Assembly (NCBI GenBank): GCA_965221185.1
Contig: OZ244866.1
Location: forward strand, 2,469,838-2,533,837
Source: Candidatus Aldehydirespirator sp.
GTDB taxonomy: Bacteria > Actinomycetota > Acidimicrobiia > Acidimicrobiales > Aldehydirespiratoraceae
Length of the DNA: 64,000 nt
Reading direction: 5' to 3'
The position numbers and the translations under genes were made by a program. Under the pieces are notes generated by a model that searched no databases, had not been told where the DNA came from, and saw nothing but the letters and a program-made list of their open reading frames with translations. Position 1 is the stretch's first letter. The number at the start of each line of letters is the position of its first letter. Of the stretch, positions 23,271-64,000 are shown piece by piece.

Positions 23271-23290
23271 CTTGCTCGACCACGACGATC

Positions 23291-39527: not shown

Positions 39528-39580
39528 CTGCCCTCCCCGCTGGTGCCGATCCTCCGCGTGATCAGCCATCCACTCCCCAC

Positions 39581-40811: not shown

Positions 40812-41527
<716 letters not shown>

Positions 41528-43469: not shown

Positions 43470-43565
43470 GTCAGCGCTCGGCGGCAGATTCGGCACAATG
43501 CGTGGTTGGCCGCCTCACCTCAGCGCTCCGCAGACTCGGCGCCGTGCGCAGCTAGCGGCCTCACG

Positions 43566-44389: not shown

Positions 44390-44509
44390 GTGGCGGAGCT
44401 CCAAGGGTTCATGCATCCCCGGACCCACTGCCGGAAGGTGTTCGCAGCTGGCGACCCCGAGGATTCGGGGGCGATCGACTGCACCAGGCTGTGCTCGTGC
44501 GGTCGGTGA
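44390..44509 (+). other. 39-codon leaderless upstream ORF / relic of an acetoacetate decarboxylase-family N-terminus
   Basis: It begins VAELQGFMHPRT, compared with MAELQGFMYPRT at the ADC-family gene (51801). Its TGA (44507-44509) overlaps the in-frame GTG 44506 of the LuxR ORF (GTGA). Confidence 0.35.
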
Positions 44510-45213: not shown

Positions 45214-45218
45214 CCGCC

Positions 45219-47629: not shown

Positions 47630-48473
47630 CCCACACCTCCGCCCGGCGCTGCCAGAGCAGCAGCGCCAGGATGAACAGGAACGGGATCGTGCCGCGGTAG
47701 CGGCTGATGCTTGAGAACCGCCCGGAGTACGCCTCCAGGAAGGCAATGAAGAACCCCGTACCCAAGGTGGGCCATACCCGTGAGAATCGACCCGCGAGGC
47801 CCGCGGCTAGGCCCGGTAGCAACAGGAACACCAACGGCGCGAAGGCGGCCGGCCTGCTGGGGCCAACAAGAATGGCGCCGAGCGCTGCGACTGCCCCGGA
47901 CACTCCCCACACGGTCACCGTCAATCCGCCGACCGGCACGCCGTCCAGTTCGGCGGTCACGGAGTCCTCGGCCATGGCACGCAGGCGGATGCCGACACGG
48001 GTCCGGTGCAGGACCAGGCTTGCAGCCGTGGCAATGGCCAGGGCAAGAATCACCGCCATCATCGTGTCGTAGGTGACTCGCACGCCGGCGAGCTCCTCGA
48101 AGCGCCCCGAGAAGAACGGGCGAGCCGCCCGCGGCTTGTCGCCGAAGACTCTGAACCCAGCGGCCAGCAGGCCCAGCAGGACCGCGATGGCGACGGTGCT
48201 CCTTGTCAGCCGCTCACTGTCGCGGAACCACGACGCGAACACCGCTCCCATCGCCACGCCGATCGCGGCGCCCAAGGCCACGGCCGCGATGGCGGCAGGG
48301 ACGATGGCGGTGCCTGCCTCGACCAGCGCGAGCATCGTGAACGCGCTGAGCGCGCCGACGGCGGTGATGGCGAAGTTGAGCGTGCCCGTCATGCGATACA
48401 TGAGCACGATGCACACGCCGAACAACGCGTAGGCCGCGCCCGAACTCAGCGACGCCGCCAGCGAGCGGATCAT
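47616..48473 (-). CDS. livH: LivH-type ABC transporter permease
   Basis: 285-aa hydrophobic protein with a LivH-like N-terminus (GAAYALFGVCIVLMYRMTGTLNFA). Confidence 0.85.
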   Translation of the reverse strand: MIRSLAASLSSGAAYALFGVCIVLMYRMTGTLNFAITAVGALSAFTMLALVEAGTAIVPAAIAAVALGAAIGVAMGAVFASWFRDSERLTRSTVAIAVLLGLLAAGFRVFGDKPRAARPFFSGRFEELAGVRVTYDTMMAVILALAIATAASLVLHRTRVGIRLRAMAEDSVTAELDGVPVGGLTVTVWGVSGAVAALGAILVGPSRPAAFAPLVFLLLPGLAAGLAGRFSRVWPTLGTGFFIAFLEAYSGRFSSISRYRGTIPFLFILALLLWQRRAEVWDDAR

Positions 48474-48509
48474 GGCCCGGTGGTCCGGCTGCGGCCCCTC
48501 AGGCCGTCA

Positions 48510-49913: not shown

Positions 49914-49940
49914 TTGTATCCCTCCAGTGGCTTGTTGGTG

Positions 49941-51653: not shown

Positions 51654-51765
51654 GAGGCGATTGAAGCAAGCGGCGAGGCTCGCGCCAATCGGCAGATCTA
51701 CCGATTCTTGGCTGATCACGTCCCCATCTCTGCGGTATGTCTGGCCGACGAAGTCGATTTGCCCG

Positions 51766-51800: not shown

Positions 51801-52619
51801 ATGGCCGAGCTCCAGGGGTTCATGTACCCGCGGACGCCCACCGGGATCGCAGGCATCGTGCCAGCACCCCCCTGGCACTACTCCGGTGAAATGCTCACCG
51901 TCGAGTACCGCACCGACCCGGACCGGGTGGCCGAGCTGCTTCCCGATCCCCTGGAGCCGGCCCCGGACGACCCGGGCGCGGTGGCCATGATCTGGGCCGA
52001 GTGGCAGAGCTGCAGCAACACCTTCGAGGAGCTGCTCGACCCGGTGCGAGCCCAGTACCGGGAGGTGTTCGCGGTCGTGCGCTGCCGCTACCGGGGCTCC
52101 ACCTACAGCCGGGCGTCCTACATCTGGGTGGACAAGGACTTCGCCATGGCCCGGGGCCACGTGCAGGGCTACCCCAAGAAGATGGGCGAGATCGCCATGA
52201 CCAGGCCGGTGACGGTGGGCCGGGCCGGGCCCCGTCTGGAGCCTGGCGGGCGCTTCGGAGCCACCTTGAGCACCTGGGGCCGACGAATCGCCGAGGCCCA
52301 GTTCACGATTACCGGCACGGCCGAGACCCCCGGCTTCGTCAACGGTCATCCGATGCTGCACAGCCGCCAGATACCGGCCATCGAAGTCGACGGGGCCGAC
52401 TCGCTCGACGAGCTGGTCACCATGCGGGGCTACGACGCCGACCTCGGACCGGTGTACTCGGGCGACGCCGAGCTGATGCTGCCCGAGTGCCCCACCGAGG
52501 AGCTGCACGTCCTCCAGCCCGTCGAGATGATCGGCGGCTACTACCGCCAGGTCGGCATGTCCATGGCGGGGGGCACAACCCTGTGGGCCGCCCCCAACCC
52601 CAAGACCGGGAGCGAATAG
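51801..52619 (+). CDS. acetoacetate decarboxylase (ADC) family protein
   Basis: ATG 51801. N-terminus MAELQGFMYPRTPTGIAGIVPAPPWHYSGEMLTVEYRTDPDRV is typical of the ADC family. Confidence 0.8.
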   Translation: MAELQGFMYPRTPTGIAGIVPAPPWHYSGEMLTVEYRTDPDRVAELLPDPLEPAPDDPGAVAMIWAEWQSCSNTFEELLDPVRAQYREVFAVVRCRYRGSTYSRASYIWVDKDFAMARGHVQGYPKKMGEIAMTRPVTVGRAGPRLEPGGRFGATLSTWGRRIAEAQFTITGTAETPGFVNGHPMLHSRQIPAIEVDGADSLDELVTMRGYDADLGPVYSGDAELMLPECPTEELHVLQPVEMIGGYYRQVGMSMAGGTTLWAAPNPKTGSE

Positions 52620-52705
52620 CCCGTGGATGCGCTCCCCAGCGGCTTTCGTCGCGCTTTCTGGTGACATGCGCCAGAAATCGCGATGAAACAGCGAGAGGAC
52701 CGTCG

Positions 52706-53986
52706 TTGAGCCCGGCCGCAGCCACGTTCGTGGACGGCTACCTCGACGACCACGGCGATGACGACGCCGACCTGTCGTCGCACGACTCGTTCACCTCCGG
52801 CGTGCCCCACGCCACCTTCAGCCGGCTGCGCCGCGATGATCCAGTGCACTGGACTCCCGAGACCGACGGTTCCGGATTCTGGTCGATCACCCGCTACCAC
52901 GACGCCGTCTCCGTGAGCCGCGACGTCGAGACGTTCACCTCCACCAAGGGCATCCGCCTCGAGGAGATGGACGACGACCAGCTCGAGGCCCGCGGCACGA
53001 TGATGGAGCTCGACCCGCCCGAGCACACCCGGCTGCGCCGGCTGGTGAACCGGGGATTCACCCGCCGCACCGTCGAGTCCTACGAGGACTCCATCCGGGC
53101 CCTGGCCGCCGAGGTGCTCGACGAGGCCCTCACCGCCGGCACCTTCGACTTCGTGACCGATGTGGCGGCCAAGCTGCCCATGCGGATGCTGGGACGGCTC
53201 CTGGGCACCAGCGACTCCGACGGCCACCAGCTGGTGGAGTGGGGCGACGCCTTCCTGGGGAACAGCGACCCCGAGTTCACCACCCACGTGGTCGACACGG
53301 CCGACACCGAGGAGTTCCGGCTGATGCCGTTCCGCAGCCCGGCCGCCATCGAGGTGTTCCGGTACGCCGAGCGTGCGGCCGCGGCGCGCCGGGCCTGCCC
53401 CCGCAACGACGTGATCACCCAACTGCTGGCCCCCACCCGGGACGGCGAGCCGCTGAGCGACCTCGAGTTCAAGAACTTCTTCACCCTGCTCATCGCGGCG
53501 GGCAACGACACCACCCGCTACACGATGACTCACGGGATCGACACGATGATGCGCCATCCCAGCCTGTGGCGAGCCTGGCGGGCCGATCCCTGCCTCACCC
53601 ACACCGCGGTGGAGGAGGTTCTGCGCACCAGCGCGGTGACAATGCACTTCCGCCGCACCGCTACCCGTCCCACGGCCATCGGCGGAAAGCAAATCGCCAC
53701 CGGCGACAAGGTGGTGATGTGGTTCTGCTCCGCCAACCACGACGAAGACGGTTTCGGTGCCCCCTGGCGCTTCGATCTGGCCCGCGACCCCAACGACCAC
53801 ATGGCCTTCGGGCGCAACGGCCCGCACCTGTGCCTGGGCGCCTGGCTGGCCCGCATGGAGGCCCGGCTCGTGTTCGAGGAGCTGATGAAGCGGGTCGACC
53901 GCCTCGAGCCCGACGGCGAGCCCCAGTACCTGCGCTCCAACTTCATCGCCGGCATCAAGCACCTGCCCGTTCGGGTGGTGGCATGA
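52706..53986 (+). CDS. cytochrome P450
   Basis: TTG 52706 with GAGAGGA upstream; GTG 52661 is an alternative start. EXXR motif (VEEVLR) and heme loop FGRNGPHLCLGAWLA. Confidence 0.9.
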   Translation: MSPAAATFVDGYLDDHGDDDADLSSHDSFTSGVPHATFSRLRRDDPVHWTPETDGSGFWSITRYHDAVSVSRDVETFTSTKGIRLEEMDDDQLEARGTMMELDPPEHTRLRRLVNRGFTRRTVESYEDSIRALAAEVLDEALTAGTFDFVTDVAAKLPMRMLGRLLGTSDSDGHQLVEWGDAFLGNSDPEFTTHVVDTADTEEFRLMPFRSPAAIEVFRYAERAAAARRACPRNDVITQLLAPTRDGEPLSDLEFKNFFTLLIAAGNDTTRYTMTHGIDTMMRHPSLWRAWRADPCLTHTAVEEVLRTSAVTMHFRRTATRPTAIGGKQIATGDKVVMWFCSANHDEDGFGAPWRFDLARDPNDHMAFGRNGPHLCLGAWLARMEARLVFEELMKRVDRLEPDGEPQYLRSNFIAGIKHLPVRVVA

Positions 53987-54040
53987 TGCCCAGAGGCCGA
54001 GTGGAAGGGCCCGGCCCGCTGGGAATCGTCACAAGATGCA

Positions 54041-54090
54041 GAGCGAGGCCGTGGCCCGAGCGGCCCGTGAGCGCAGCGAACAAGAGCGGG
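54041..54090 (+). repeat. copy A of a perfect 50-bp inverted repeat
   Basis: GAGCGAGGCCGTGGCCCGAGCGGCCCGTGAGCGCAGCGAACAAGAGCGGG lies 75-124 nt upstream of the LigB-type gene start. It is the exact reverse complement of 58893-58942. Confidence 0.95.
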
Positions 54091-54164
54091 AGACACGACG
54101 CTGCACCGCGAGACGGCAGATACCCGTCCATGCTTGCTCTCAGCAGCCGCCGGGAGGTCTGACC

Positions 54165-55025
54165 ATGGGTGCGATAGTGGGTGCCGCGCTGGTGTCGCAC
54201 GTGCCGCCGCTGGTGATGTCCGAGAGCGATCGGCGGGCGCTGAACGGCGGCGAGGACACCTCCCTGTTCGCGGGTCTGCACGCGCTGCGGGCCGAGCGCC
54301 TGGCTCCCGCCGCGGCCGACACCGTGGTGGTGGTCGACACCCACTGGTTCACCACCATCGAGCACGTGATCTCCGCCCATGAGCGGCGCAAGGGACTGTT
54401 CACCTCCGACGAACTGCCCCGGGGCATGTGCGCCATGCCCTACGACATGCCCGGCGACCCCGAGCTGGCCCACGCCTTCGCGGCGGCCGCGGCCGGCCGC
54501 GACGACGCCTGGGTGACAGCCATAGACGACCCCCACCTGCCGGTGCACTACCCAACCATCAACCTGCTCGGCTTCCTGCAGGGCGACGAGCGCTGGGTGT
54601 CGATGGGCGTGTGCCAGACCGCCGAGCCAGCGGACTTCCTGCTGGCCGGCCAGCTTCTGGCCTCCGCGGTGGCCGGTCTCGACCGCCGGGTGGTGGTGCT
54701 GGCCAGCGGCGGGCTCAGCCACCGGTTCTGGCCGCTGCGGCAGTTCCGCGACCACGAGGGCGCCGATCCCGACCTCCACATCCGCACCCCCGAGGCGGCC
54801 GCGGCCGACCGCAGGGTGCTCGCTTGGATGGCCGCCGGCGACCACGCCGCCATCATCGACTTCCTGCCCGAATACTCCCGCCACGCCCCCGAGGGCTACT
54901 TCGGCCACTACCTGGTCATGGTGGGGGCGCTCGGCGGACCGGCCTGCACCGCACCGGGCGTCCAGTTCGGACAGTACGAGTCGGTGTCGGGCACAGGCCA
55001 GGCCCACGTATGGTTCGACCTGTGA
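54165..55025 (+). CDS. class III extradiol ring-cleavage dioxygenase (LigB family)
   Basis: ATG 54165 with GGGAGG 7 nt upstream. LigB-type sequence (VVVVDTHWF, LASGGLSHRF). Confidence 0.7.
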   Translation: MGAIVGAALVSHVPPLVMSESDRRALNGGEDTSLFAGLHALRAERLAPAAADTVVVVDTHWFTTIEHVISAHERRKGLFTSDELPRGMCAMPYDMPGDPELAHAFAAAAAGRDDAWVTAIDDPHLPVHYPTINLLGFLQGDERWVSMGVCQTAEPADFLLAGQLLASAVAGLDRRVVVLASGGLSHRFWPLRQFRDHEGADPDLHIRTPEAAAADRRVLAWMAAGDHAAIIDFLPEYSRHAPEGYFGHYLVMVGALGGPACTAPGVQFGQYESVSGTGQAHVWFDL

Positions 55026-55750
55026 GCAAGTCGCGGCGGGCCCTGGTGCTCGCCCACGAACCCCAGGGCACCAGCGCGCTGGTGGGCGAGCGGCTGGCGC
55101 AGCAGGGCTACGACGTGCACGAACATGTGGTGACCGCAGACCTGGACCGCCCCAACGACGCCGCGCCCTTTCCCGACGCCGCCGGCTACGACGTACTGGT
55201 GCCGATGGGCTCGATCCGCTCACTCACCAACACCGGCGAGATCGACAGCTGGATCTTCGACGAGATCGACATGATGAGAACGGCGCGACAGCGGGGCACG
55301 CCCATCCTCGGTGTGTGCTTCGGCGGCCAGCTGCTGGCTGCTTCCTTCGGTGGAGCCGTCGAGGAAGCGCCGGTCCCCGAGATCGGCTGGTACGAGGTCT
55401 ACGAACCCGACGGCTCACCCAACGGGGCGCGCAACCCGCTGGGTCCCGGGCCGTGGTTCCAGTGGCACCACGACCGTTTCACCCCTCCTGAGGAGGCAGA
55501 CGTCCTGGCCGTGAACGACAACGCCGTGCAGCTGTTCCGGCTGGACCGCTGCGTGGGCACGCAGTTCCACCCCGAGGTGACCTACGCCCACCTCGAAGGC
55601 TTCCTGTCAGGGGCAGACGAGGAGTACCTGGCCGAGCACGGCCTGAGCCGGGAGGGACTGCTGGAGAGCGTGCGTCACCACGAAGACCGCAACGCCCGGC
55701 AGTGCACCGCCCTAGTCGACTGGTTCCTCGACGAGGTGGCCGACTCTTAG
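55022..55750 (+). CDS. class I glutamine amidotransferase-like protein
   Basis: GTG 55022 forms a GTGA overlap with the LigB-type gene's stop. Nucleophile elbow GVCFGGQLL and the His/Glu region QFHPE. Confidence 0.8.
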   Translation: MSKSRRALVLAHEPQGTSALVGERLAQQGYDVHEHVVTADLDRPNDAAPFPDAAGYDVLVPMGSIRSLTNTGEIDSWIFDEIDMMRTARQRGTPILGVCFGGQLLAASFGGAVEEAPVPEIGWYEVYEPDGSPNGARNPLGPGPWFQWHHDRFTPPEEADVLAVNDNAVQLFRLDRCVGTQFHPEVTYAHLEGFLSGADEEYLAEHGLSREGLLESVRHHEDRNARQCTALVDWFLDEVADS

Positions 55751-55760
55751 GCTCCCTCCT

Positions 55761-56186
55761 GTGACCAGCCGCTGGATCGTCTTGGCCTGTGCGCTGTGCG
55801 CTGCGGTCGTGGTGGCGTCGGCGTGCTCGGGGACTAGGGCGCTCAGCTGCCCGGAGGGAACCGAGCGGTGGGTCGAATACCAGCTGTTCATGGGCCGAAG
55901 CGGCCCCGAGGGCGAGACCGTGGACGACGCCTCCTGGGACGCCTTCCTCGCGGAGGCGGTGACCCCCCGGTTCCCCGACGGGCTCACCGTGGTCGACGGA
56001 CGGGGCCAGTGGCGGGGCTCCGACGGCACCATCAAGCAGGAGCGTTCGAAGCTGCTGGTGATCCTCGCGCCCCCCGGAGGCGACGCCCGGCAACGACTGG
56101 ACGAGATATCTCAGGAGTACAGGCTCCGGTTCAGCCAGGAGGCAGTGCTCCAAACGGCTACCGAGACCTGCGCAGCCTTCCTGTAG
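55761..56186 (+). CDS. DUF3574-like lipoprotein
   Basis: Signal/lipobox (VVVASACSG). Core YQLFMGRSGPEGETVDDASWDAFLAEAVTPRFPDGLTVVDGRGQW. Confidence 0.65.
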   Translation: MTSRWIVLACALCAAVVVASACSGTRALSCPEGTERWVEYQLFMGRSGPEGETVDDASWDAFLAEAVTPRFPDGLTVVDGRGQWRGSDGTIKQERSKLLVILAPPGGDARQRLDEISQEYRLRFSQEAVLQTATETCAAFL

Positions 56187-56195
56187 CGTGGGTTC

Positions 56196-56393
56196 GTGCC
56201 GTCGAACACGACCAGAACACTGAGCCCACTGATCGCGGCGGGCATCTTCATCGCACTCTTCGTGCTGCTGACCCTGACCGGTGCGACCCTGGGTGGTGTC
56301 GGGCAATACGAGCTATTGGTCATCGCCTTGATCTCGCTCGGAGGCGCGTATCTCGCTTATCGAAGGCTCGTAAGGTCCACCGACACCGAGTAG
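56196..56393 (+). CDS. small two-TM membrane protein
   Basis: 65 aa from a GTG start, with two hydrophobic helices. It is the last gene of the plus-strand operon. Confidence 0.45.
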   Translation: MPSNTTRTLSPLIAAGIFIALFVLLTLTGATLGGVGQYELLVIALISLGGAYLAYRRLVRSTDTE

Positions 56394-56452
56394 CGGGCGG
56401 CCACGACTCGGGGCTCGCTTGAGCACGGCGCTCTTGTGAAACCCCCTGCGCA

Positions 56453-57409
56453 TCAGTTGTCATCGGCCGGAGTCTCGAGGCGGGCGGCTCGGACGACGAT
56501 GTGCTCGCACAGCGCCCGGACCTCGGAGGGGTCGTCGGTGTGCTGGGAGGGCTTCACGCAGAGCGTGGTGAACCCGGCTGCGATCTGGTCCTCGAAGTCG
56601 GCCATGGCCTCGTCGATGTCGGCGGTGTCGTCGGCGCCGGCGAAGACCGCCCGAGTGCCGCCCACCATCTCGATCCCGTCTGGGTCGCGGCCCACGGCGG
56701 CCAACCCGGCCCGAAGCGCCGCCAGATCCTCAGCGCTGGCTGCGCCGAAGGGATGGAAGCCGTCCCCGTAGGACACCAACCGGCTGAGCAGCGCCGGGTG
56801 CATCGACTGGCCGCCGAACCACATCCTGGGACGGGCCGGATCGGTCCGCCACGGCTTGGGCACGCAGTAGACGTCGTCGAAGGCGAAGCGAGGGCCGGGG
56901 TGCGAGGCCGGGGTGTGCTCCCACAGCGCGGCCATGGCCGCGAGCTGCTCGTCGAGGATGTCACCCCGCTCGGCGAAGGGCACGCCGAGGGCGTGGTACT
57001 CCTCGCGGTGCCAAGAAACTGTGGGCTGCACCACCAGCCGGCCCTCGCTCAGCCGGTCCAGGGTGGCCAGCTCCTTGGCCAGTAGCACCGGATGGCGCAG
57101 CGGGGCGATCACCGCACCCATCACCAGCCGCACTCGCCGGGTTGCCGCGGCCACCGCGGCCAGCAGCACATTGGAGCTGGGCCAGGACGTGGCCGGGTCC
57201 TGGTTGCCCGGAGCGGCGTAGGCGCGGGGGTTGACGGGTCGGCCCAGGGCTCCGGCCGAGGGGCCGAGGACGACATGCTCGCTGGCCATCACCGCGTCGA
57301 ACCCTGCCGCCTCGGCGTCCGTGGCCAGGCGCACCAAGCCGACCAGGTCGTCGGGGTCGACCAGGGTGTGGTTCTCGGTGAGGATCAGCAGCAGCCGGGG
57401 TGGAGCCAT
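56453..57409 (-). CDS. LLM-class F420/flavin-dependent oxidoreductase (paralogue of 42534..43469)
   Basis: ATG 57409, 10 nt after the GS-like stop. Collinear with the 42.5-kb paralogue (LILTENHT, RLVVQPTVSW, MWFGG). Confidence 0.85.
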   Translation of the reverse strand: MAPPRLLLILTENHTLVDPDDLVGLVRLATDAEAAGFDAVMASEHVVLGPSAGALGRPVNPRAYAAPGNQDPATSWPSSNVLLAAVAAATRRVRLVMGAVIAPLRHPVLLAKELATLDRLSEGRLVVQPTVSWHREEYHALGVPFAERGDILDEQLAAMAALWEHTPASHPGPRFAFDDVYCVPKPWRTDPARPRMWFGGQSMHPALLSRLVSYGDGFHPFGAASAEDLAALRAGLAAVGRDPDGIEMVGGTRAVFAGADDTADIDEAMADFEDQIAAGFTTLCVKPSQHTDDPSEVRALCEHIVVRAARLETPADDN

Positions 57410-57419
57410 CAAGAGCCGC

Positions 57420-58778
57420 TCAGTGGTAGGGCAGGTACTGCTTGAACTCCCATTCGGACACGGGCTCGCTGCCGGTGATCGCGTCCCAATCACCGACGAC
57501 CCCGTCGCCCGCCTGATCCGTGTAGCGGTCCCACTCGGCGCGCTTGTTGAACACGAAGTTGGCGCACAGCTCCGAGCCGAGCGCCTCGCAGAGGGCCTCG
57601 TCGGCTTCCATGTCGTCGAGGGCCGCACTCAGGCTGTGGGCGCAGTGGACGTCGGTGTCGACCTCGTCGAAGCCGTCGGTGGTCATGGGATCGGGGCATT
57701 CCAGCCCGCCGACGACGCCGAGGCGGGCCGCCTGCAGCACGGTGGCTACCAGGGTGTGGACATTGGCGGCCCCGTCGCCGATGCGGCTCTCCACGCGCAT
57801 GTGAGATCCGGGGCCCCGGGGCACCCGGTTGCCTGCGCAGCGGTGCTCCACGCCCCAGTTGGCCCAGTACCCGTTGAGCTCGCCGTGACGCAGGCGCCGG
57901 TAGGCGTTGACGGTGGGCGCAGCCAGCGCCGTCATCCCCACGTGGTGGTTGACAAGGCCCGCCATGGCGCCCCGGGCCAGGTCCGACATGCCGTGGGCGC
58001 CGCCCGCGTCCGAGAAGGCGTTCTGACCCTGCGCGTTGGCCAGCGAGAGGTTCACATGCACACCGCTGCCGGAGATGCCGGGGAAGGGCTTGCCCAGGAA
58101 GGTGAGGTCCAGGCCGAGGGGCCGGCCGGAGCGGTCGGTCGCGGTCAGCACCGTCTCGCGGGCCAGCAGCCGGAACAGGAACGCATCGTCGGCGGCCCGC
58201 ATGGCGTCGCCGTACTCGAGGGTGAGCTCGAACTGGCCCTCGTCGTACTCGGCGTTGACCGACTCCATGGCCATGCCCGAGGCCTCCGCCCGGCGCACCA
58301 CCGAGGTGATCACTCCGGCGGGATCGGTCGCCACGCCGGTGCCGTAGACCATCGCGCCGGGCGTCTCGTAGGGCCGGGGGTTCTTCAGGCCGCCGCTGAA
58401 CACGTAGGCCTCGAGCTCGATGCCGACCTTGGGGGTGTAGCCGAGGGCCTCCCAGTCGGCCACCGCCCGGCGCAGCGCCTCGCGAGGCGACACCGGCAGG
58501 GCCTCCCCGTGCATCGACAGGTCGCCGATGACGACACCGGTGGCGTCGTCATCCCAGCCCTGGCGGATGTCGCCGGTGTCGAAGCTGATCTGCGTGTCGG
58601 GCAGGCCGTCGAGCAGGTAGGCGCCGGGCGCGGGAACCATGCTGCGGTCATAGCCGAGCGCGAACACGCATACGCAGTGGCTGGTGCCCTTGTGGGCCAG
58701 CCGGGACGGCAGGTACTTGCCCCGGGCCAGCCCGAGGTGGTCGGGCCAGAGCACCCGGACGCGGTCCCAGTCGGTCAT
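57420..58778 (-). CDS. glutamine synthetase-like gamma-glutamyl ligase (GlnA family)
   Basis: ATG 58778 with GGGAGA upstream. GS catalytic motifs (NAEYDEGQFELTL, GSGVHVNLSL, NRVPRGPG...RVESR). The 46 upstream codons of the track ORF cover the repeat element. Confidence 0.85.
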   Translation of the reverse strand: MTDWDRVRVLWPDHLGLARGKYLPSRLAHKGTSHCVCVFALGYDRSMVPAPGAYLLDGLPDTQISFDTGDIRQGWDDDATGVVIGDLSMHGEALPVSPREALRRAVADWEALGYTPKVGIELEAYVFSGGLKNPRPYETPGAMVYGTGVATDPAGVITSVVRRAEASGMAMESVNAEYDEGQFELTLEYGDAMRAADDAFLFRLLARETVLTATDRSGRPLGLDLTFLGKPFPGISGSGVHVNLSLANAQGQNAFSDAGGAHGMSDLARGAMAGLVNHHVGMTALAAPTVNAYRRLRHGELNGYWANWGVEHRCAGNRVPRGPGSHMRVESRIGDGAANVHTLVATVLQAARLGVVGGLECPDPMTTDGFDEVDTDVHCAHSLSAALDDMEADEALCEALGSELCANFVFNKRAEWDRYTDQAGDGVVGDWDAITGSEPVSEWEFKQYLPYH

Positions 58779-58892
58779 GGCATCTCCCGAAATCGAGTTG
58801 GAACGCTGAACGTTTGGCCCCAAACGGTAGCCCGCACCGCGGTCGGGGTCACACTGGCCGCGCCGCCCAGCCGGCGACGGCTCTCCGTGCTG

Positions 58893-58942
58893 CCCGCTCT
58901 TGTTCGCTGCGCTCACGGGCCGCTCGGGCCACGGCCTCGCTC
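58893..58942 (-). repeat. copy B of the perfect 50-bp inverted repeat
   Basis: Reverse complement of 54041-54090. It lies 115-164 nt upstream of the GS-like start and overlaps the last codons of the acyl-CoA dehydrogenase ORF. Confidence 0.95.
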
Positions 58943-60193
58943 AGCGCCCCGCGAAGTCCATGTGGATCGCGTCCATCCGCTCGGCCTCTCGGGTGCTTCG
59001 TCCTGTTCGGGATAGAGACCGGTGCGGCCCAGGCGTTCAAGGCAGACCTCGACGCTCCAGGGCAGCATGGCCACGCCGCAGCGGGCGTCGCGATAGGCCT
59101 GCTCCAGGTAGGAGGGGCGCAGCATGCTGCGGCCCCCGCACACCTGCAGAGCCAGCGACGCCACCGCGGGGGCGCCCTCCATTACCGTGACCACCGACGA
59201 CCAGGCCCGCCGCACCTGCTCGGCACTGGGATCGATCCCGCACTCGTCCAGCACCCGGTAGGTGAGCGACTGGGCCCGATCGTACATCAGGTTCATCTGG
59301 GCCCAGCCCTGCTGCTTGATCGGGTGGTCGCGCCGGGCCGGGCCCCCGCCGCCGTCGCCTCGCAGGTAGGCGGCGGTGGCGTCGAGTATCCCCCGCATGA
59401 GGCCCAGGTAGGCGAACGACAACGTCATGTAGAAGTAGGGCCAACGGGCCGCAGCCTGGTCGAAGGCGCCCGGCGGCAGCCACTCGTTCTCGGCGGGCAC
59501 CAGGGCGTTGTCGAGCACCAGAGTGCGAGAGTCGGTGCCCCTCATGCCGAGGGGATCCCACTCCCCTTCGATGGTCGCGCCGGTCGCGTCGGAGGGCACG
59601 CCCATGAAGCGGATCCGCTCATCGCCGGGCACCAGGCAGACCACGTTGTGGATGTTCGCCGCTCCCGACAGGGAGGCGAAGATCTTGCGTCCCGTCACCC
59701 GGTAGCCGCCGCTGGCGCCCTCGACGGGCACGGCCCGGGTGGAGTAGCCGGCGGTGGCGCCTGCGGCCACTCCTTCAGAGAAGGGCTGGCTGTGGATCGT
59801 GCCGTTCTCGACGATGCCGCGACGCAGCTCGGCGCGCCGCTCCACCAGCAGGGACCGCTCGGCCGTGGTGAGATCCAGATCGTCAGCGATCTGGCCCACG
59901 AGGATGGTGGTGGCGGTGTGCATGTTGAACGTGAGCGCGGTGGTGGCGCAGTGGCGGCCCAGCTCCTCGGCCACCAGGGCGTAGCCCACGAAGTCGCCGC
60001 CGAGCCCGCCGTCGCCGGTGGGGATGCACAGCCCGAGCAGGCCGGCGTCGCGCAGGTCGGCCCAGTTCTGGGTAGGGAACGTGGCGTCGCGGTCGTGGGC
60101 CTCAGCCCGCTGCGCGAAGCGCGGCCCGAGGGCCGCCATGCGCTGCACGAGCCCGGCCCGCTCCGGGGTGAGTATGTCTGCTGCTACTCCCAC
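58913..60193 (-). CDS. acyl-CoA dehydrogenase-fold flavoprotein
   Basis: 426 aa from GTG 60193 with an ACAD-type three-domain pattern. The last roughly 32 aa (PERPSGWTRSTWTSRGAERGRGPSGP) come from read-through into the repeat module. Confidence 0.8.
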   Translation of the reverse strand: MGVAADILTPERAGLVQRMAALGPRFAQRAEAHDRDATFPTQNWADLRDAGLLGLCIPTGDGGLGGDFVGYALVAEELGRHCATTALTFNMHTATTILVGQIADDLDLTTAERSLLVERRAELRRGIVENGTIHSQPFSEGVAAGATAGYSTRAVPVEGASGGYRVTGRKIFASLSGAANIHNVVCLVPGDERIRFMGVPSDATGATIEGEWDPLGMRGTDSRTLVLDNALVPAENEWLPPGAFDQAAARWPYFYMTLSFAYLGLMRGILDATAAYLRGDGGGGPARRDHPIKQQGWAQMNLMYDRAQSLTYRVLDECGIDPSAEQVRRAWSSVVTVMEGAPAVASLALQVCGGRSMLRPSYLEQAYRDARCGVAMLPWSVEVCLERLGRTGLYPEQDEAPERPSGWTRSTWTSRGAERGRGPSGP

Positions 60194-60204
60194 GCGCCGA
60201 TCAT

Positions 60205-61101
60205 CTACTCACCAAAGTCGTCGATTGCACCATTCTGTTGCCCGAAGTAGCCGGGATCCGCCCATCTCGGGGCGGAGGTGCCGAACTCCTGGCGGCGACC
60301 GAGGAAGTCGCGCACCCGGCGGTTGAAGGTATGCGGAGCCTCCGAGACGCCGAGATGGCCCACACCGTCGAGCACTACCAACTCGGCTCGCGGCAATCCG
60401 TCGGCGAGGATACGGGAGTAAGCCACCGGAGTCTCGGCGTCGCACTCTCCCGCTACTACGAGCGCGGGCGAGGCGATCTCGCCCAGCCGATCGCGCAGGT
60501 CGTGGGTCGGGAGGCACTCGATGGCAGCCCGCAGACCCGCCACCGGTATGCGAGCAAAGCCGGCAATCCGCATGGCAAGCAGATCGGGGCTGAGATCGGG
60601 ACCGGCGATCGCAGTCAGGACGTCCGCCGCGATGTCGCCTGGGGTCAGGCCCGCGTCGAGCGGGGCTAGACGGGCGGCGCTCCAATCGGAGGGGTCGGTG
60701 CCGTCGAGGCCGAACGCAGGGCTCGTGTTGGCCACCACAAGCCGGCCGATCCGGTCGGGATGGCGCAGTGCGGTGTGCAGCGCATGCATCCCGCCGAAGG
60801 ACTCTCCCACCAGATGAGCCCGCTGCACGCCGACGGCGTCGAGCAGCCGGGCCACCGAATCGGCGATGGCGGCGAAGGTCAGAGGCTCCATGGGGGCCGA
60901 GACTCCGTAGCCGGGCATGTCCCAGGCGATGCACCGGAATGCGCCGCTCAGACCAGCAAGTTGCGGCTCCCATGAAGTACGCGAGCCGCCGAGCCCGTGA
61001 AGGAACACAATCGGCGCACCGCGGCCCTGCTCGCGCCAAGCCAGCGGCCCGTCCACATCCACGGCACCAGCCGCGGCTTGGGGAGCGAACAGAGCGGACA
61101 C
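60205..61101 (-). CDS. alpha/beta hydrolase
   Basis: Oxyanion region FLHGLGG and nucleophile elbow GESFGG. The start is GTG 61101, or 61116/61140. Confidence 0.8.
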   Translation of the reverse strand: MSALFAPQAAAGAVDVDGPLAWREQGRGAPIVFLHGLGGSRTSWEPQLAGLSGAFRCIAWDMPGYGVSAPMEPLTFAAIADSVARLLDAVGVQRAHLVGESFGGMHALHTALRHPDRIGRLVVANTSPAFGLDGTDPSDWSAARLAPLDAGLTPGDIAADVLTAIAGPDLSPDLLAMRIAGFARIPVAGLRAAIECLPTHDLRDRLGEIASPALVVAGECDAETPVAYSRILADGLPRAELVVLDGVGHLGVSEAPHTFNRRVRDFLGRRQEFGTSAPRWADPGYFGQQNGAIDDFGE

Positions 61102-61124
61102 GGTCGGAACATACACTCTTGGCC

Positions 61125-61832
61125 GTGACGAGAACACCACTGATCGGCATTTCGGGACGCACGAGGAAAGCTGGCGAACTCGGTCTCAAGCCAGCATCGA
61201 TGGGGGGCTCGGAGATCGACCTGTTCTTCGGCGACTACGCCCGAGGTGTGCTGGCCGCCGGCGGCCTGCCGATATTCCTTCCCACCTGTACCGACCCGGC
61301 CGACTATGCCGAGCGACTGGACGGGGTGCTGTTGACCGGCGGCACCGACGTCGACCCGGCCCGGTACGGCCAGGAGCCGTGTGCCGAACTGATCACGCCC
61401 GAGCCGGGCCGCGACGCGTTCGAGATCGGCCTGCTCGATGGTGCGGCCAAGGCCGGATTGCCCGTGTTGGGGATCTGTCGCGGCCTCCAAGTGCTCAATG
61501 TGCACGGCGGGGGCACGCTTCACCAGCACGTTGCCCCTCATGCCTGTCAGGCCCAGCCCCCGAACGCCGTCGCCCACCGAGTCGATCTCGCCGAGGGCTC
61601 GCTGGCGGCGTCGCTCTACGGCCCTTCGGTAGAGGTCAACTCGCTGCACCACCAGACGGTCGACGCCATCGCCGACGGCTTCTTGGCGACCGGCCACAGC
61701 GACGACGGCGCCATCGAGGCGATCGAGTCGCCTTACCGGCCGTGGCTGGGGGTCCAGTGGCATCCCGAGATGATGGACTCCCGCGACCACGACCCCGTAT
61801 TCGACTGGCTGGTCCAGGCTGCCTCGGCCTGA
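61125..61832 (+). CDS. gamma-glutamyl hydrolase-type class I amidotransferase (peptidase C26, PuuD-like)
   Basis: GTG 61125 gives VTRTPLIGISG.... Nucleophile GICRGLQVLNV and His region GVQWHPE. Confidence 0.85.
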   Translation: MTRTPLIGISGRTRKAGELGLKPASMGGSEIDLFFGDYARGVLAAGGLPIFLPTCTDPADYAERLDGVLLTGGTDVDPARYGQEPCAELITPEPGRDAFEIGLLDGAAKAGLPVLGICRGLQVLNVHGGGTLHQHVAPHACQAQPPNAVAHRVDLAEGSLAASLYGPSVEVNSLHHQTVDAIADGFLATGHSDDGAIEAIESPYRPWLGVQWHPEMMDSRDHDPVFDWLVQAASA

Positions 61833-61853
61833 TCCAGTCTCAGATGTCCTCCG

Positions 61854-63233
61854 TCAGGAGGCGGTGCGCTCCACGTGGCCGCCGTATCCGACGGTGCCTG
61901 AGACTCCGGCCGCGGAGCCGAGACGGTGCAGCGGCACGGTGTTGTACGACGGCGATGGCGTGTAGGCCACCGGCAGGCGCTTCACCCCGCCGATGAAGTT
62001 GGACCGCAGATAGTCGGGCTCGCCGTCGAGATGGATGTCGGGCATCCGCCGGGCGATCTCCCGGAAGGTCAGGCGGATCTCCATCTTGGCCAGACTCGTG
62101 CCCAGGCAGTAGTGCGGGCCGCCGCCGCCGAAGCCGACGTGGTCGTTGGGGGTGCGCTCGATGTCGAAGCGCCACGGGTCCTCGAAGGCGCGCGGGTCGC
62201 GGTTGGCGGCCACGTGCCACATGAGCACCTTGTCGCCCGCGGCGATCTTGACCCCGCCGATCTCGTAGTCGGACAGGGCCTGGCGGCGGAAGTACATGAC
62301 CGGGGTGGCCCATCGCACGATCTCCTCCACCGCGGTCTCCATGTGCCGGTCGGGGTCGGCGGTGAACTTCTCCCACTGGTCACCGAAGTCGAAGAAGGCC
62401 ATCATCCCCCGGGTGATCGAGTTGCGGGTGGTCTCGTTGCCGGCCACGCACAGGATCAGGAAGAACATGTCGAACTCGAGCTCGGTGAGGGCCTCGCCGT
62501 CGATGTCGGCCGACAGCAGCGTGGTGACGATGTCGTCGGCGGGCGTGCTGCGGCGCTCCGTCTGGAGCTGGTGGGAGTAGCCGAACAGTTCGGCCGCGGC
62601 CTGGAGGATGTCGTCGCGGCTCTTGACGAACTCGGGGTCCTCGCTGCCGATCATGGCGTTGGTCCAGTCGAACACCTTGGCGCGGTCCTCGATGGGTATG
62701 CCCATCATCTCGGCGATTGCCTGCAGGGGCAGCTCTGCCGAGATGCTGCGCACGAAGTCGCAGCGGCCCTTGTCCACCACCTCGTCGAGGATGATGTCGA
62801 TGCGGTTCTGGAGGTAGTCCTCGAGCAGGCCGATCATTCGGGGGGTGAAGCCCCGGTTGACAAGCTTGCGATAGCGGGTGTGGCGGGGCGGGTCCATATC
62901 GATCAGCGTCAGGTCGCTCGCGATGCCCGATATCCCCTCTCTCTGACCGGGATCGCGCATCTGCGTGCCGCTGTGGCCGGACGAGAACACATCAGCCCGT
63001 CGGTTCACCTCCTTGAGGTGGGCCTGGCGGGTGATGGCCCAGTAGCCGGAACCCTCGTCCCCCTCGTCCACCCAGTGGATGCCGGGGTCGGTCTCTCGCA
63101 GCCGCGCCAGCGCGTCGTGGTGCTCCTGGCGCTGGAACATGTCGAAGTCCCACGTGTCCACGCCGGAGGCGGGGCATCGCCCGGCTCCGTGGTCGACGGG
63201 ACAGCCTGTCAGCTGCTCATCAGTGATCGCCAT
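61854..63233 (-). CDS. cytochrome P450
   Basis: ATG 63233. EXXR motif (VEEIVR) and heme loop FGGGGPHYCLGTSLA. Confidence 0.9.
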   Translation of the reverse strand: MAITDEQLTGCPVDHGAGRCPASGVDTWDFDMFQRQEHHDALARLRETDPGIHWVDEGDEGSGYWAITRQAHLKEVNRRADVFSSGHSGTQMRDPGQREGISGIASDLTLIDMDPPRHTRYRKLVNRGFTPRMIGLLEDYLQNRIDIILDEVVDKGRCDFVRSISAELPLQAIAEMMGIPIEDRAKVFDWTNAMIGSEDPEFVKSRDDILQAAAELFGYSHQLQTERRSTPADDIVTTLLSADIDGEALTELEFDMFFLILCVAGNETTRNSITRGMMAFFDFGDQWEKFTADPDRHMETAVEEIVRWATPVMYFRRQALSDYEIGGVKIAAGDKVLMWHVAANRDPRAFEDPWRFDIERTPNDHVGFGGGGPHYCLGTSLAKMEIRLTFREIARRMPDIHLDGEPDYLRSNFIGGVKRLPVAYTPSPSYNTVPLHRLGSAAGVSGTVGYGGHVERTAS

Positions 63234-63307
63234 GCTCGCACCTCGCTGTCGGGGCTCTAGGTCTTGCACCAGCCGCGTGCCTCGGGACGGCCGGCGGCAC
63301 AATTTAC

Positions 63308-63335
63308 CTTCCTAGGAAGTTGTCTTCCTAGGAAG
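63308..63335. promoter_or_regulatory. two copies of the perfect palindrome CTTCCTAGGAAG (candidate tandem operators)
   Basis: Copies at 63308-63319 and 63324-63335, 16 bp start-to-start and 75-102 nt upstream of the P450 ATG. A TAAATT -10-like hexamer (minus strand, 63301-63306) is adjacent. Confidence 0.6.
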
Positions 63336-63387: not shown

Positions 63388-64000
63388 TCAGCTGATGGTG
63401 CTGGTGGGAACCCCTGCCTGCACGACTGAAGCTTCCACCACCGGCACCTCGTGACGCTCGAGGGGACGCATCCGCTCCTTGCGGGCCAGGGCCTTCTCGA
63501 TATAGGGGGCCAACTCGTCAGCCTTGGCCGCCTCACGCTCTTCGCGGCCTGCCGAGAAGTGGCCCAGCACCTCTGATCCGAACAGGCGCAGGCTTGCGCA
63601 GATGTCTTCGTGGCGGTTCTTGCCGCCCTGCTGCAGGAATATCACATGGTCGATGCGTGCGTCCTCGGCCTCCTTGAGCCAGCGCACCGCGTCGGCAGGG
63701 GTGCCGATGGTGTCGGAGTAGTCGTCGCCCGCGTCCAGTGCGGCGGCCACCGCGTCCTGTTGCGCCGAGCCGCGCTGGACCTGGTAGCGGTCCCAGATGT
63801 TCGAGTGGCCCGGGATGGTGTGGTGCACCACCAGTTGGCGCAGGGCGTAGGCGAAGAAGTGGAACCCGTCGAAGCCCCTTCGGATGGCCTCGGCCCGGTC
63901 CTCGTGCAGCGAGAAGCCGGTGACCACCGCGATATTGGCGTTGACGCTGTGCCCCAGGGGCACGCACTCGTCGCTGCGGATGATGTCGTAGTACGCCTCG
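63388..64000 (-). CDS. LLM-class flavin-dependent oxidoreductase (5' end outside the window)
   Basis: The open frame continues to the window edge. The C-terminal half resembles luciferase-like monooxygenases (RIDHVIFLQQGG...). Confidence 0.6.
   Translation of the reverse strand, partial: EAYYDIIRSDECVPLGHSVNANIAVVTGFSLHEDRAEAIRRGFDGFHFFAYALRQLVVHHTIPGHSNIWDRYQVQRGSAQQDAVAAALDAGDDYSDTIGTPADAVRWLKEAEDARIDHVIFLQQGGKNRHEDICASLRLFGSEVLGHFSAGREEREAAKADELAPYIEKALARKERMRPLERHEVPVVEASVVQAGVPTSTIS

Follow-up and report, generated by a model that had tools for sequence, protein, structure and literature searches.

A cytochrome P450 and a glutamine synthetase-like ligase candidate linked to a homoprotocatechuate-like meta-cleavage gene set in Candidatus Aldehydirespirator

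The stretch of 64,000 nucleotides analysed here (the window) covers positions 2,469,838 to 2,533,837 of contig OZ244866.1 in the assembly GCA_965221185.1 of Candidatus Aldehydirespirator sp., and carries a gene cluster in which a glutamine synthetase (GS)-like protein stands together with two cytochromes P450, a LigB-type ring-cleavage dioxygenase and several hydrolases. The family Aldehydirespiratoraceae (UBA11606) includes a lineage of sponge symbionts (PMC11706023). An earlier note, made from the letters of the DNA and a list of its open reading frames (ORFs), had described an accessory catabolic cluster at 51801-63335, built around the GS-like ligase and two amidotransferase-type hydrolases. 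The gene families that it listed are all present at those places according to Pfam and NCBIfam, and its interpretation as a whole is partly supported by what follows. The genes that carry the argument are these:

38061-39569, minus strand: aldehyde dehydrogenase (ALDH; Pfam Aldedh), HpaE-like, candidate ring-fission semialdehyde dehydrogenase
39753-40643, minus strand: FAA-hydrolase family enzyme (FAAH; Pfam FAA_hydrolase), HpaG-like, candidate isomerase/decarboxylase
41632-42135, plus strand: MarR-family regulator (Pfam MarR), candidate regulator of the cluster
51801-52619, plus strand: ADC-superfamily enzyme (PF06314), MppR/Sbi00515-like
52706-53986, plus strand: cytochrome P450a (PF00067), CYP124/125/142-like
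54165-55025, plus strand: LigB-type (class III) extradiol dioxygenase (PF02900, 82 bits), HpaD-like
55022-55750, plus strand: class I glutamine amidotransferase (GATase)-type hydrolase (PF00117), overlapping the LigB gene by 4 nt
57420-58778, minus strand: GS-like protein (PF00120), candidate γ-glutamyl-amine ligase
58913-60193, minus strand: protein with an acyl-CoA dehydrogenase (ACAD) fold (Pfam Acyl-CoA_dh N/M/C)
60205-61101, minus strand: α/β-fold hydrolase (PF00561), PcaD/RutD/BioH-like
61125-61832, plus strand: Peptidase C26 family protein (PF07722, 189 bits), predicted IpuF/PuuD-like γ-glutamyl-amide hydrolase
61854-63233, minus strand: cytochrome P450b (PF00067), a 41%-identical paralogue of P450a

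Because the G+C content of the window is about 69%, genes were called by third-position GC, and their starts were set against L001, a relative 90% identical to the window; families were assigned with Pfam and NCBIfam. A genome scan gave 318 confirmed GS relatives, and 80 loci were kept for comparison by tblastn; counts given below out of 55 refer to those among the 80 that have complete 10-kb flanks. A metagenome scan seeded with the GS of Novosphingobium gave at least 497 further GS relatives and was followed by tblastn, the long loci (at least 12 kb, n=31) falling into 19 of type 1 and 12 of type 2 as defined below. Plasmids were screened by tblastn for GS relatives, and GATase-type ORFs were recounted by a hidden Markov model (HMM) scan across the long metagenome loci, L006, Novosphingobium and Streptomyces (S.) canus. 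Among the loci named, L003 and L006 have GS proteins 70% and 64% identical to that of the window, L005 is from Poriferisocius, and the Ipu locus of pTC1 (L171) and the aniline locus of Delftia pLME1 (L172) served as references. The nearest GS relatives (93-94% identity) are found in metagenome-assembled genomes (MAGs) of Candidatus Aldehydirespirator and remoter ones in Ca. Poriferisocius and other Acidimicrobiales, many of them out of sponge metagenomes; the 80 kept loci are nearly all from uncultured Acidimicrobiia, including many sponge symbionts.

The GS-like protein has 452 residues, not 498, its start lying 46 codons downstream of the start of the ORF, and its homologues are also 452 residues long. 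It scores far below the curated cut-offs of every GS model compared, i.e., 150 bits against a cut-off of 429 for the type I enzyme GlnA (TIGR00653), 182 against 650 for the PuuA model (GGputSyn) and 176 against 470 for type III GS, and the highest match among solved structures in the PDB reaches 131 bits only (85 bits for NpaA1). Nevertheless, the metal, ATP and glutamate motifs align with those of Bacillus subtilis GS (E-x-E, NAE...QFE, GSG-H-x-N-x-S, N-x-Y-R-R-L, R...R and R-x-E-x-R), and the catalytic motifs are invariant across 22 homologues. The protein is 31% identical to IpuC and about 30% identical to both a TdnQ-like protein and a plasmid-encoded GlnA. In a neighbour-joining tree it falls within a clade of P450-linked GS-like proteins, outside of which lie the S. 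canus GS, IpuC, the TdnQ-like protein and GlnA, each about 30-35% identical to it. Since the TIGR00653 score is far under its cut-off and the protein branches apart from GlnA, it is not a housekeeping GlnA, a point in favour of the reading in the earlier note. Judging by its motifs, it is probably a competent γ-glutamyl ligase of a distinct clade, and these motifs do not indicate specificity for ammonium.

P450a finds its closest solved relatives in CYP125MRCA (414 bits) and in CYP268A2, CYP124 and CYP125 (about 255 bits), and the haem-ligating Cys motif is kept both in P450a and in P450b. Orthologues of P450b (at least 81% identity) occur, across the 80 loci, only in the closer relatives whose GS is at least 70% identical, namely Aldehydirespirator and allied Acidimicrobiales MAGs, and P450b thus appears to be lineage-specific. 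The third putative oxygenase is the ACAD-fold protein, in which a hand alignment shows the catalytic Glu motif of acyl-CoA dehydrogenases (YEGT) replaced by LPWS (within MLPWSVEV); residues L377, P378, W379 and S380 are invariant among 25 homologues. Its AlphaFold (AF2) model, with a mean predicted confidence (pLDDT) of 81, has as top Foldseek matches TdsC/DszC, KijD3, nitrososynthases and 5z8t, the last being a flavin-containing monooxygenase. These fold matches and the loss of the catalytic Glu most probably mark the protein as a two-component flavin monooxygenase of group D rather than a dehydrogenase, so that the description of it as an ACAD-fold flavoprotein in the earlier note can almost certainly be made more precise. 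This monooxygenase was seen only in the Acidimicrobiia versions of the cluster. Additionally, a 73%-identical homologue is encoded at 10001-11191 of locus L088, from a 6.3-Mb genome, among LLM (luciferase-like monooxygenase), PNPOx, GMC oxidoreductase and sulfatase genes and with no GS nearby; as this homologue stands in an unrelated context, the enzyme is not exclusive to the pathway discussed here.

The LigB-type protein, the ALDH and the FAAH all have enzymes of the homoprotocatechuate (HPC) pathway as their best curated matches, i.e., HpaD_Fe for LigB (130 bits, cut-off 316), HpaE for the ALDH (473 bits, cut-off 638) and HpaG-C for the FAAH (190 bits, cut-off 276). In the PDB, LigB matches the HPC 2,3-dioxygenase 8iq8 (78 bits) and AmnB (47 bits), and its residues H12, H60, E243 and H186 stand at what we take to be the positions of the iron ligands and catalytic His of LigB itself (H12, H61, E242 and H195). 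The ADC-like protein reaches 222 bits on the MppR model TIGR04460 (cut-off 380) and matches the structures of MppR (193 bits) and 4zbo/6eej (169 bits), with Lys126-Lys127 and Glu88 at the sites expected for the Schiff-base Lys pair and the active-site Glu. MppR and Sbi00515 form a lysine Schiff base with their substrates, which are 4-hydroxy-2-oxo or 2-oxo-3-enoic acids. Pfam scans of the cluster found no pyridoxal phosphate enzymes that could be MppP or MppQ partners. Between 38 and 64 kb there is no HpaH hydratase, HpaI aldolase or HpaBC hydroxylase, and it is plausible that the ADC-superfamily protein fills the role of HpaH/HpaI and the ACAD-fold monooxygenase that of HpaBC.

Two proteins could hydrolyse γ-glutamyl amides. 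The GATase-type protein matches 7d54, a stand-alone GATase of Mycobacterium smegmatis (153 bits), and keeps the triad C99/H183/E185 (motifs GVCFGGQ and QFHPE). The C26 protein matches Lin1909 (126 bits) and PuuD (82 bits) in the PDB, its Cys (GICRG) and His-Glu (WHPE) motifs aligning with Lin1909; its best NCBIfam match is PuuD (81 bits, cut-off 266), and it is 39% identical to the GATase that adjoins the Ipu P450. The α/β-fold hydrolase, which keeps a nucleophile motif of the G-x-S-x-G type (GESFG), scores 138-154 bits against PcaD, under the cut-off. Its start codon and that of the C26 gene are divergent and 23 nt apart (61102-61124), a spacing pointed out in the earlier note and found unchanged in 24 related loci; such a gap leaves no room for conventional leaders and therefore suggests leaderless or overlapping divergent promoters.

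Among the 55 full-length Acidimicrobiia-dominated loci, tblastn finds the ACAD-fold gene in 50, the α/β hydrolase in 48, C26 in 47, P450a in 46, LigB and the GATase in 44 each, ADC in 42 and the LLM oxidoreductase at 56453-57409 in 14. This grouping is far above chance, and the linkage survives rearrangements. For example, ADC, P450, LigB, GATase, ACAD and GS are consecutive on the same strand in L003, and ADC, LigB and P450a are better conserved than the GS itself (about 80%, 75% and 71% identity where the GS has 59%). A contiguous order is found in L021, L023 and L028, i.e., [LLM-P450b]-C26-α/β hydrolase-ACAD-GS-GATase-LigB-P450a-ADC-(SDR)-MarR-ABC-FAAH-ALDH-(GPP34), SDR being a short-chain dehydrogenase, and a minimal version in L006 comprises only ADC-P450-LigB and, separately, GS-SBP-ABC-FAAH-ALDH-MarR, where SBP denotes a substrate-binding protein. 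Since the HpaE-like ALDH, the HpaG-like FAAH and MarR abut the cluster in close relatives, the functional unit is larger than 51801-63335 and, by this comparison, would run upstream to about 38.0 kb, with some 25 kb in all (about 38.0-63.2 kb); the limits drawn in the earlier note had missed the lower-pathway genes and MarR at 38.0-42.1 kb. Its word "accessory" is not borne out for the Aldehydirespirator lineage, where the cluster lies on the chromosome, has a normal composition and occurs in most of the related genomes; in other phyla, plasmid-borne versions do exist.

These versions emerged from the plasmid screen by tblastn, which found far closer relatives than IpuC or TdnQ. Plasmid pABRDHK22 of Novosphingobium sp. 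EMRT-2 encodes proteins identical to those of the window at 53% (LigB), 47% (P450), 48% (GS), 66% (ALDH), 62% (ADC) and 74% (FAAH), along with MarR, a second ALDH and a 2Fe-2S ferredoxin. A plasmid of S. canus NBC_00633 (L174, 107-8606) has TetR, FAAH (69%), LigB (54%), ALDH (55%), ADC (58%), a reductase and a ferredoxin on one arm, and on the divergent arm a P450 (47%) and a GS-like gene that is only 33% identical, so that the pathway may have been retained with a different GS swapped in. Overall, orthologues of the ALDH (55-69% identity) stand beside GS or P450 genes in L006, Novosphingobium, S. canus and metagenome loci, the FAAH is 69-78% identical to the cluster members of L006, Novosphingobium and S. 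canus, and ADC is 58-62% identical to those of Novosphingobium and S. canus. Finally, the megaplasmid of Ruegeria sp. TM1040 (L089, 9755-13281) has the order GATase-P450 (50%)-GS (43%).

Two architectures can be distinguished. Type 1 comprises LigB, a P450-GS-ALDH unit with an HpaE-like ALDH, ADC and FAAH, in hosts that span 45% to 69% G+C, MarR, a second ALDH and a ferredoxin being optional. In type 2, found in Ruegeria and in freshwater loci, GATase-P450-GS-ferredoxin-ALDH is joined by Tct transporters, a UPF0261/Tm-1-like protein and an aminotransferase of class III; it would appear to be an uncharacterised pathway of the Ipu/Pip type that acts on an aliphatic or cyclic amine. The loci of this sister operon (L089, L149-L155 and L159) come from cultured roseobacters and freshwater bacteria. 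In Ruegeria, the position of the GS-P450 pair next to paa genes was considered as a clue to phenylethylamine and set aside, as it may be a coincidence; the side conserved with a freshwater locus is the other one, which carries the class III aminotransferase, the Tm-1-like/UPF0261 protein and the Tct transporter.

Across both architectures, a gene 44-55% identical to P450a adjoins the GS in 31 of 31 long metagenome loci. By HMM scan, a GATase-type ORF is present in 12 of 19 type-1 and 11 of 12 type-2 long loci, and in L006, Novosphingobium and S. canus the surrounding 10-12 kb contain no GATase-type hydrolase; given these figures, the hydrolases are frequent yet not obligatory. Because the same set recurs on the Novosphingobium and S. 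canus plasmids and in metagenome loci, the constant core is the P450, the GS and a homoprotocatechuate-like meta-cleavage set (LigB, HpaE-like, HpaG-like and ADC-like). Co-conservation of the neighbours across phyla, a check suggested in the earlier note, was therefore found; its claim that the cluster is built around the GS and two hydrolases did not hold, as the constant partner of the GS is the P450, accompanied by LigB, ALDH, FAAH and the ADC-like protein, and the hydrolases are dispensable.

Starting from the observed gene content, intact catalytic motifs and cross-phylum co-conservation, a pathway can be proposed in which every substrate and reaction is inferred. We lean toward the view that the cluster catabolises an amine that is, or becomes, a catechol, with glutamylation and P450 oxidation as the front end and meta-cleavage as the back end; the general mechanism of glutamylation, P450 oxidation and meta-cleavage, taken as such, appears fairly probable. 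The GS-like enzyme would join the amine to the γ-carboxyl of glutamate at the expense of ATP, and P450a would oxidise the resulting γ-glutamyl amide in the fashion of the Ipu pathway. An HpaD-like LigB could then open a catechol, after which the HpaE-like ALDH and the HpaG-like FAA-family isomerase/decarboxylase would process the ring-fission product, and the ADC-like protein, as a lysine-Schiff-base hydratase-aldolase replacing HpaH/HpaI, would give pyruvate and an aldehyde. MarR could control the cluster, and the ABC system could bring the substrate in.

A more specific version is tentative, and we regard it as possible rather than probable. Here the substrate would be an arylethylamine of the tyramine or dopamine type, and P450a would hydroxylate the carbon beside the amide nitrogen, giving a carbinolamide that would break down to an arylacetaldehyde and glutamine, or to glutamate and ammonia via the GATase and C26 hydrolases. 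The ALDH would turn the arylacetaldehyde into (hydroxy)phenylacetate or 3,4-dihydroxyphenylacetate, the ACAD-fold flavin monooxygenase would add the second ring hydroxyl in this lineage, and homoprotocatechuate would go into the meta-cleavage route. Among the possible P450 reactions, this attack on the α-carbon is favoured because sp3 C-H bonds are the target both of the Ipu P450 and of the solved relatives of P450a, because P450-GS-ALDH forms one unit in both architectures and because complete clusters occur without any hydrolase. α-Carbon oxidation of glutamylated amines also fits the type-2 sister operon with its class III aminotransferase. If so, GS-like protein and P450 might form a general ATP-driven module that converts arylethylamines to aldehyde and glutamine, with the nitrogen captured as glutamine, and that is wired to a variant homoprotocatechuate route; this generalisation is speculative.

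Several observations weigh against the proposed pathway. In lipids and sterols, the solved relatives of P450a oxidise terminal methyl groups, which differ from the α-carbon of an amide, and the 64-kb window encodes no ferredoxin, ferredoxin reductase or flavin reductase. Five loci hold GS, ACAD and the α/β hydrolase without a P450 or LigB within 10 kb; moreover, the ACAD-fold protein and the α/β hydrolase are the tightest partners of the GS in Acidimicrobiia, and the latter has no step in the proposed route. All Hpa-like scores are under the curated cut-offs, and the HpaD-, HpaE- and HpaG-like members of Novosphingobium and S. canus likewise fall short of them, hence the ring-cleavage substrate may not be homoprotocatechuate itself. 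The patchy presence of the GATase in type-1 loci fits glutamine release and hydrolytic removal of glutamate alike. Finally, the cost in ATP and NAD(P)H of deaminating an amine in this way is high when compared with an amine oxidase or a transaminase.

The strongest alternative, which we nevertheless consider unlikely, is that P450a (with the ACAD-fold monooxygenase) hydroxylates the ring, and that the γ-glutamyl group stays in place as protection of the amine through ring cleavage. γ-Glutamyl-tyramine would become γ-glutamyl-dopamine, which LigB, ALDH, FAAH and the ADC-like protein would convert to pyruvate, CO2 and γ-glutamyl-4-aminobutanal; oxidation to γ-glutamyl-γ-aminobutyrate (GABA) and cleavage by the PuuD-like C26 protein would yield glutamate and GABA. 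The carbon bookkeeping, derived from the established Hpa and Puu pathways, lands exactly on the Puu intermediate, and PuuD is both the best NCBIfam match of the C26 protein and among its PDB matches. Such a mask would keep the catechol or the ring-fission aldehyde from cyclising onto the amine, and Hpa-like scores under their cut-offs would be expected with a modified substrate, so that the evidence does not firmly separate this P450 reaction from attack on the α-carbon. The 4-nt overlap of LigB and GATase, the two aldehyde dehydrogenases of the Novosphingobium cluster and the closeness of the ADC-like protein to MppR, whose substrate is a nitrogen-bearing 4-hydroxy-2-oxo acid, would also suit it. 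It requires, however, a γ-glutamyl hydrolase, which is missing from the 10-12 kb around the clusters of Novosphingobium, S. canus and L006; in addition, the window cluster has no second aldehyde dehydrogenase, and P450a has aliphatic C-H hydroxylases as its solved relatives.

Less probable still is an arylamine substrate of the aminophenol type. In that case, the GS-like enzyme would make a γ-glutamyl anilide, and a P450 acting in place of a Rieske dioxygenase would replace the glutamylated nitrogen by a hydroxyl, giving catechol and glutamine, whereas the GATase would be a dispensable safety valve like AtdA2 or NpaA2. Catechol would go on through LigB, ALDH, the FAA-family decarboxylase and the ADC-like hydratase-aldolase, so that each core enzyme has exactly one step. 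There is a precedent in the Delftia locus and its like, in which a GS-like and a GAT-like protein work with an oxygenase on γ-glutamyl anilide and the GAT-like protein is not required (PMC11335346), and the patchy distribution of the GATase suits such a non-essential role. Yet the GS shares a mere 30% or so of its residues with the TdnQ-like protein and reaches 85 bits to NpaA1, the cluster contains no Rieske oxygenase, and a monooxygenase would yield catechol only from an arylamine that is already hydroxylated. The second-best PDB matches of LigB are 2-aminophenol dioxygenases and the second-best match of the ALDH is 2-hydroxymuconic semialdehyde dehydrogenase, but the best matches of LigB, ALDH and FAAH are homoprotocatechuate enzymes, which point to a catechol that bears a side chain; the aminotransferase-bearing sister operon, for its part, looks aliphatic.

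A biosynthetic cluster is very improbable. LigB would open a catechol, the adjacent GATase, whose gene overlaps that of LigB by 4 nt, would give the ammonia that closes a ring of the pyridine or betalamic type, and the GS, P450s and flavin monooxygenase would tailor the metabolite. This would agree with the biosynthetic role of MppR, the nearest characterised relative of the ADC-like protein, and with the nitrososynthase-like fold matches of the ACAD-fold protein, but the clusters are flanked by importers and by MarR, TetR or LuxR regulators, the HpaE- and HpaG-like lower-pathway genes are constant members, several clusters that are otherwise complete lack the GATase, and no gene for a carrier protein, ligase, exporter or MppP/MppQ partner turned up. 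That the GS is an ordinary nitrogen-assimilation enzyme merely beside unrelated oxidative genes is largely refuted and keeps next to no probability: although all metal, ATP and glutamate motifs are kept and the source annotations read "glutamine synthetase", its low type I score, its distance from GlnA and a linkage conserved across Acidimicrobiia, Alphaproteobacteria and Streptomyces plasmids speak against it. Two further readings were rejected, namely steroid catabolism (CYP125-like P450 and HsaA/HsaD-like matches), for which the matches are weak, Kst/Ksh genes are absent and GS and GATases stay unexplained, and N-N bond or nitroso chemistry (the nitrososynthase likeness of the ACAD-fold protein), since importers, regulators and the Hpa-like lower pathway point to catabolism.

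Besides these genes, the cluster and its flanks contain the following:

40808-41527, minus strand: ABC-transporter ATPase (Pfam ABC_tran)
42534-43496, minus strand: F420-type LLM oxidoreductase, accessory paralogue (TIGR03619, 167.5 bits, cut-off 166.9)
43566-44324, minus strand: SDR (Pfam adh_short), accessory
44491-45213, plus strand: LuxR-family regulator (Pfam GerE), first gene of a 7.2-kb block
45219-49913, minus strand: Liv-type ABC importer (Pfam), made up of an ATPase (45219-45938), a permease-ATPase fusion (45935-47746), a permease (47616-48473) and a Peripla_BP_6 binding protein (48510-49913)
49941-51653, minus strand: Amidohydro_3 metal-dependent hydrolase, 88% identical to an L001 gene annotated PF07969
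55761-56186, plus strand: DUF3574 lipoprotein (PF12098) with a lipobox, present in 4/55 loci
56196-56393, plus strand: 65-residue hydrophobic ORF with two membrane spans by eye, a doubtful gene
56453-57409, minus strand: F420-type LLM oxidoreductase, accessory (TIGR03619, 184.7 bits, cut-off 166.9), in 14/55 loci
63388-64000, minus strand: 3' part of a 415-residue LLM-class gene, truncated by the window end

The DUF3574 protein and the LLM at 56453-57409 are lineage-specific extras. The small membrane protein of the earlier note exists as an ORF, but L001 has a mere 14 nt in its place, with no room for it. The two LLM oxidoreductases are 61% identical; that at 42534-43496 adjoins ADC in L009, L013, L018, L035 and L066, as does the SDR in L009, L028, L062, L066 and L075. 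MarR lies directly between ADC and the ABC/FAAH/ALDH genes in L021 and L023, and both Novosphingobium and type-1 metagenome loci have it too. The ABC ATPase at 40808-41527 recurs at 68-92% identity in many related loci and stands beside an SBP and permeases in L005 and L006.

The 7.2-kb block at 44491-51653 (LuxR, Liv importer and Amidohydro_3) sits between ADC and the SDR, whereas close relatives have ADC directly beside the SDR or MarR. Its LuxR gene has no match in the full-length loci (0/55), and its Liv transporter and Amidohydro_3 gene occur in 5/55 each; L005 and L006 have other Peripla_BP_6 ABC systems next to the cluster. PDB searches matched the Amidohydro_3 protein to uncharacterised hydrolases only and gave no ligand clue for it or for the Peripla_BP_6 binding protein. 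A possible role of the Amidohydro_3 hydrolase is to split the amine off an amide conjugate. In L005, a NicX-family protein (16324-17364) is encoded beside the binding-protein gene, where the window has the Amidohydro_3 hydrolase, and either of them could release the amine from a conjugate. The divergent intergenic region between Amidohydro_3 and ADC contains a near-perfect 20-bp palindrome (51687-51706; AATCGGCAGA followed by TCTACCGATT), which is absent from every related locus compared, and promoter and terminator scans were uninformative.

At the ALDH end, the cluster is abutted by a gene of the GPP34 (Golgi phosphoprotein 3) family (37411-38064, plus strand), as it is in L028, a family reported as a hallmark of sponge-symbiotic Actinobacteriota (PMC11706023). 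At the other end, the truncated LLM-class gene, whose C-terminal part is the ORF at 63388-63963 that has no Pfam match, corresponds to a Bac_luciferase gene at 3049-4296 of L001 and is followed in relatives by TauD and an S-methyltransferase; L001 (2105-4296) has a citrate-synthase-like gene between LLM and P450b. Elsewhere in the window, a block at 18655-27159 with a creatinase/M24 peptidase (18655-20073), an MttB-family methyltransferase (20148-21665), an OpuAC-type binding protein (21822-23087) and an ABC permease with a CBS-ATPase (23291-27159) is likely devoted to the utilisation of quaternary amines. The region 10184-17508 looks like a defence or mobile islet: a GmrSD restriction enzyme is encoded in a patch of low GC (0.61 at 10-12 kb), and after it come genes for a Macro-domain protein and a DUF222-HNH nuclease and two genes like those of LigT/2'-5' RNA ligases. 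Lastly, an ORF of about 1380 residues and about 75% GC with FHA and FtsK/SpoIIIE ATPase domains (3-4139, minus strand) is truncated by the window start.

Pathways that begin with γ-glutamylation are known for few amines, i.e., putrescine, ethanolamine, methylamine, isopropylamine, anilines and naphthylamine. The cluster described here is common and widely distributed, as judged from the 318 genome and at least 497 metagenome relatives of its GS. If the arylethylamine version were true, Acidimicrobiia (sponge symbionts among them), Alphaproteobacteria, Streptomyces plasmids and marine bacteria of low GC would carry an alternative to amine oxidases and transaminases that has gone unrecognised. 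An ADC-fold enzyme would stand in for the hydratase and aldolase of the homoprotocatechuate route, which would give the poorly understood ADC-like enzymes of the MppR/Sbi00515 type a catabolic role. Were the substrate a host-derived compound of the catecholamine or tyramine type, this would bear on nitrogen salvage by sponge symbionts and on their nutrition from metabolites of the host or of algae. The hypothesis can be put to a direct test, since cultured carriers of the plasmids and megaplasmid exist (Novosphingobium sp. EMRT-2, S. canus NBC_00633 and Ruegeria sp. TM1040). The S. canus plasmid cluster carries its own ferredoxin and reductase and is a handy source of P450 redox partners. In agreement with the earlier note, which did not recognise the combination as a described pathway, literature searches found no published description of it, and searches on γ-glutamyl-tyramine and γ-glutamyl-dopamine returned papers on methanofuran, molluscs and metabolomics only.

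Among known systems, the Ipu pathway combines a GS-like enzyme, a P450 with its ferredoxin and ferredoxin reductase, an amidotransferase-type hydrolase and an ALDH, the P450 acting on the γ-glutamyl amide and the hydrolase taking off the glutamate (PMC6776027). The logic of GS, P450 and amidotransferase-type hydrolase put forward in the earlier note agrees with this pathway, and the extended cluster of the window has all four kinds of gene known from Pseudomonas sp. KIE171 and from pTC1 of Paenarthrobacter aurescens TC1. However, there is no orthology, with 31% identity of the GS to IpuC and 27% of P450a to the Ipu P450, and the ferredoxin and reductase are missing from the window, whereas Ipu lacks a ring-cleavage dioxygenase, a flavin monooxygenase and any FAA-family or ADC-like enzyme. 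In the aniline and 1-naphthylamine systems, glutamylation by a GS-like enzyme precedes oxygenation, and a GAT-like hydrolase and meta or ortho cleavage of catechol are also involved (PMC11335346). The window cluster shares with these Tdn/Atd/Npa systems the GS-like protein, the GAT-like hydrolase and, as predicted, catechol cleavage, but Pfam scans found no Rieske domain in its genes, P450s and a flavin monooxygenase being there instead, and its ring-cleavage enzyme is LigB-type and physically within the cluster.

The Hpa/Hpc pathway resembles the back end, as the best curated matches of LigB, ALDH and FAAH are HpaD, HpaE and HpaG and its order of cleavage, dehydrogenation, decarboxylation and aldol split to pyruvate fits; it differs in that the scores are under the equivalog cut-offs, an ADC-superfamily enzyme stands where HpaH/HpaI would be, HpaBC is missing, and Hpa has no GS or P450. 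In the Puu pathway and the GlnA2/3/4 systems of Streptomyces, amines are γ-glutamylated in an ATP-dependent manner (PMC9397018). An amine-ligase candidate, an aldehyde dehydrogenase and a C26 hydrolase of the PuuD type are present in the window cluster as in Puu, but a PuuB-type oxidase is not (no DAO or amine oxidase at 38-63 kb), and oxygenases and the dioxygenase dominate. As for cyclic amines, γ-glutamylpiperidide is reportedly a P450 substrate in a Pseudomonas strain that degrades piperidine. In actinobacterial loci for piperidine, pyrrolidine and morpholine, a P450 (PipA/MorA, CYP151) lies beside a gene annotated as glutamine synthetase (PMC9477822); these loci resemble the type-2 operon GATase-P450-GS-ferredoxin-ALDH and have no aromatic ring-cleavage module. 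By these comparisons, the window cluster appears to join an Ipu-like front end to an Hpa-like back end as an orthologous member of neither, and what would be new is a route that links glutamylation and P450 oxidation to the cleavage of an aromatic ring.

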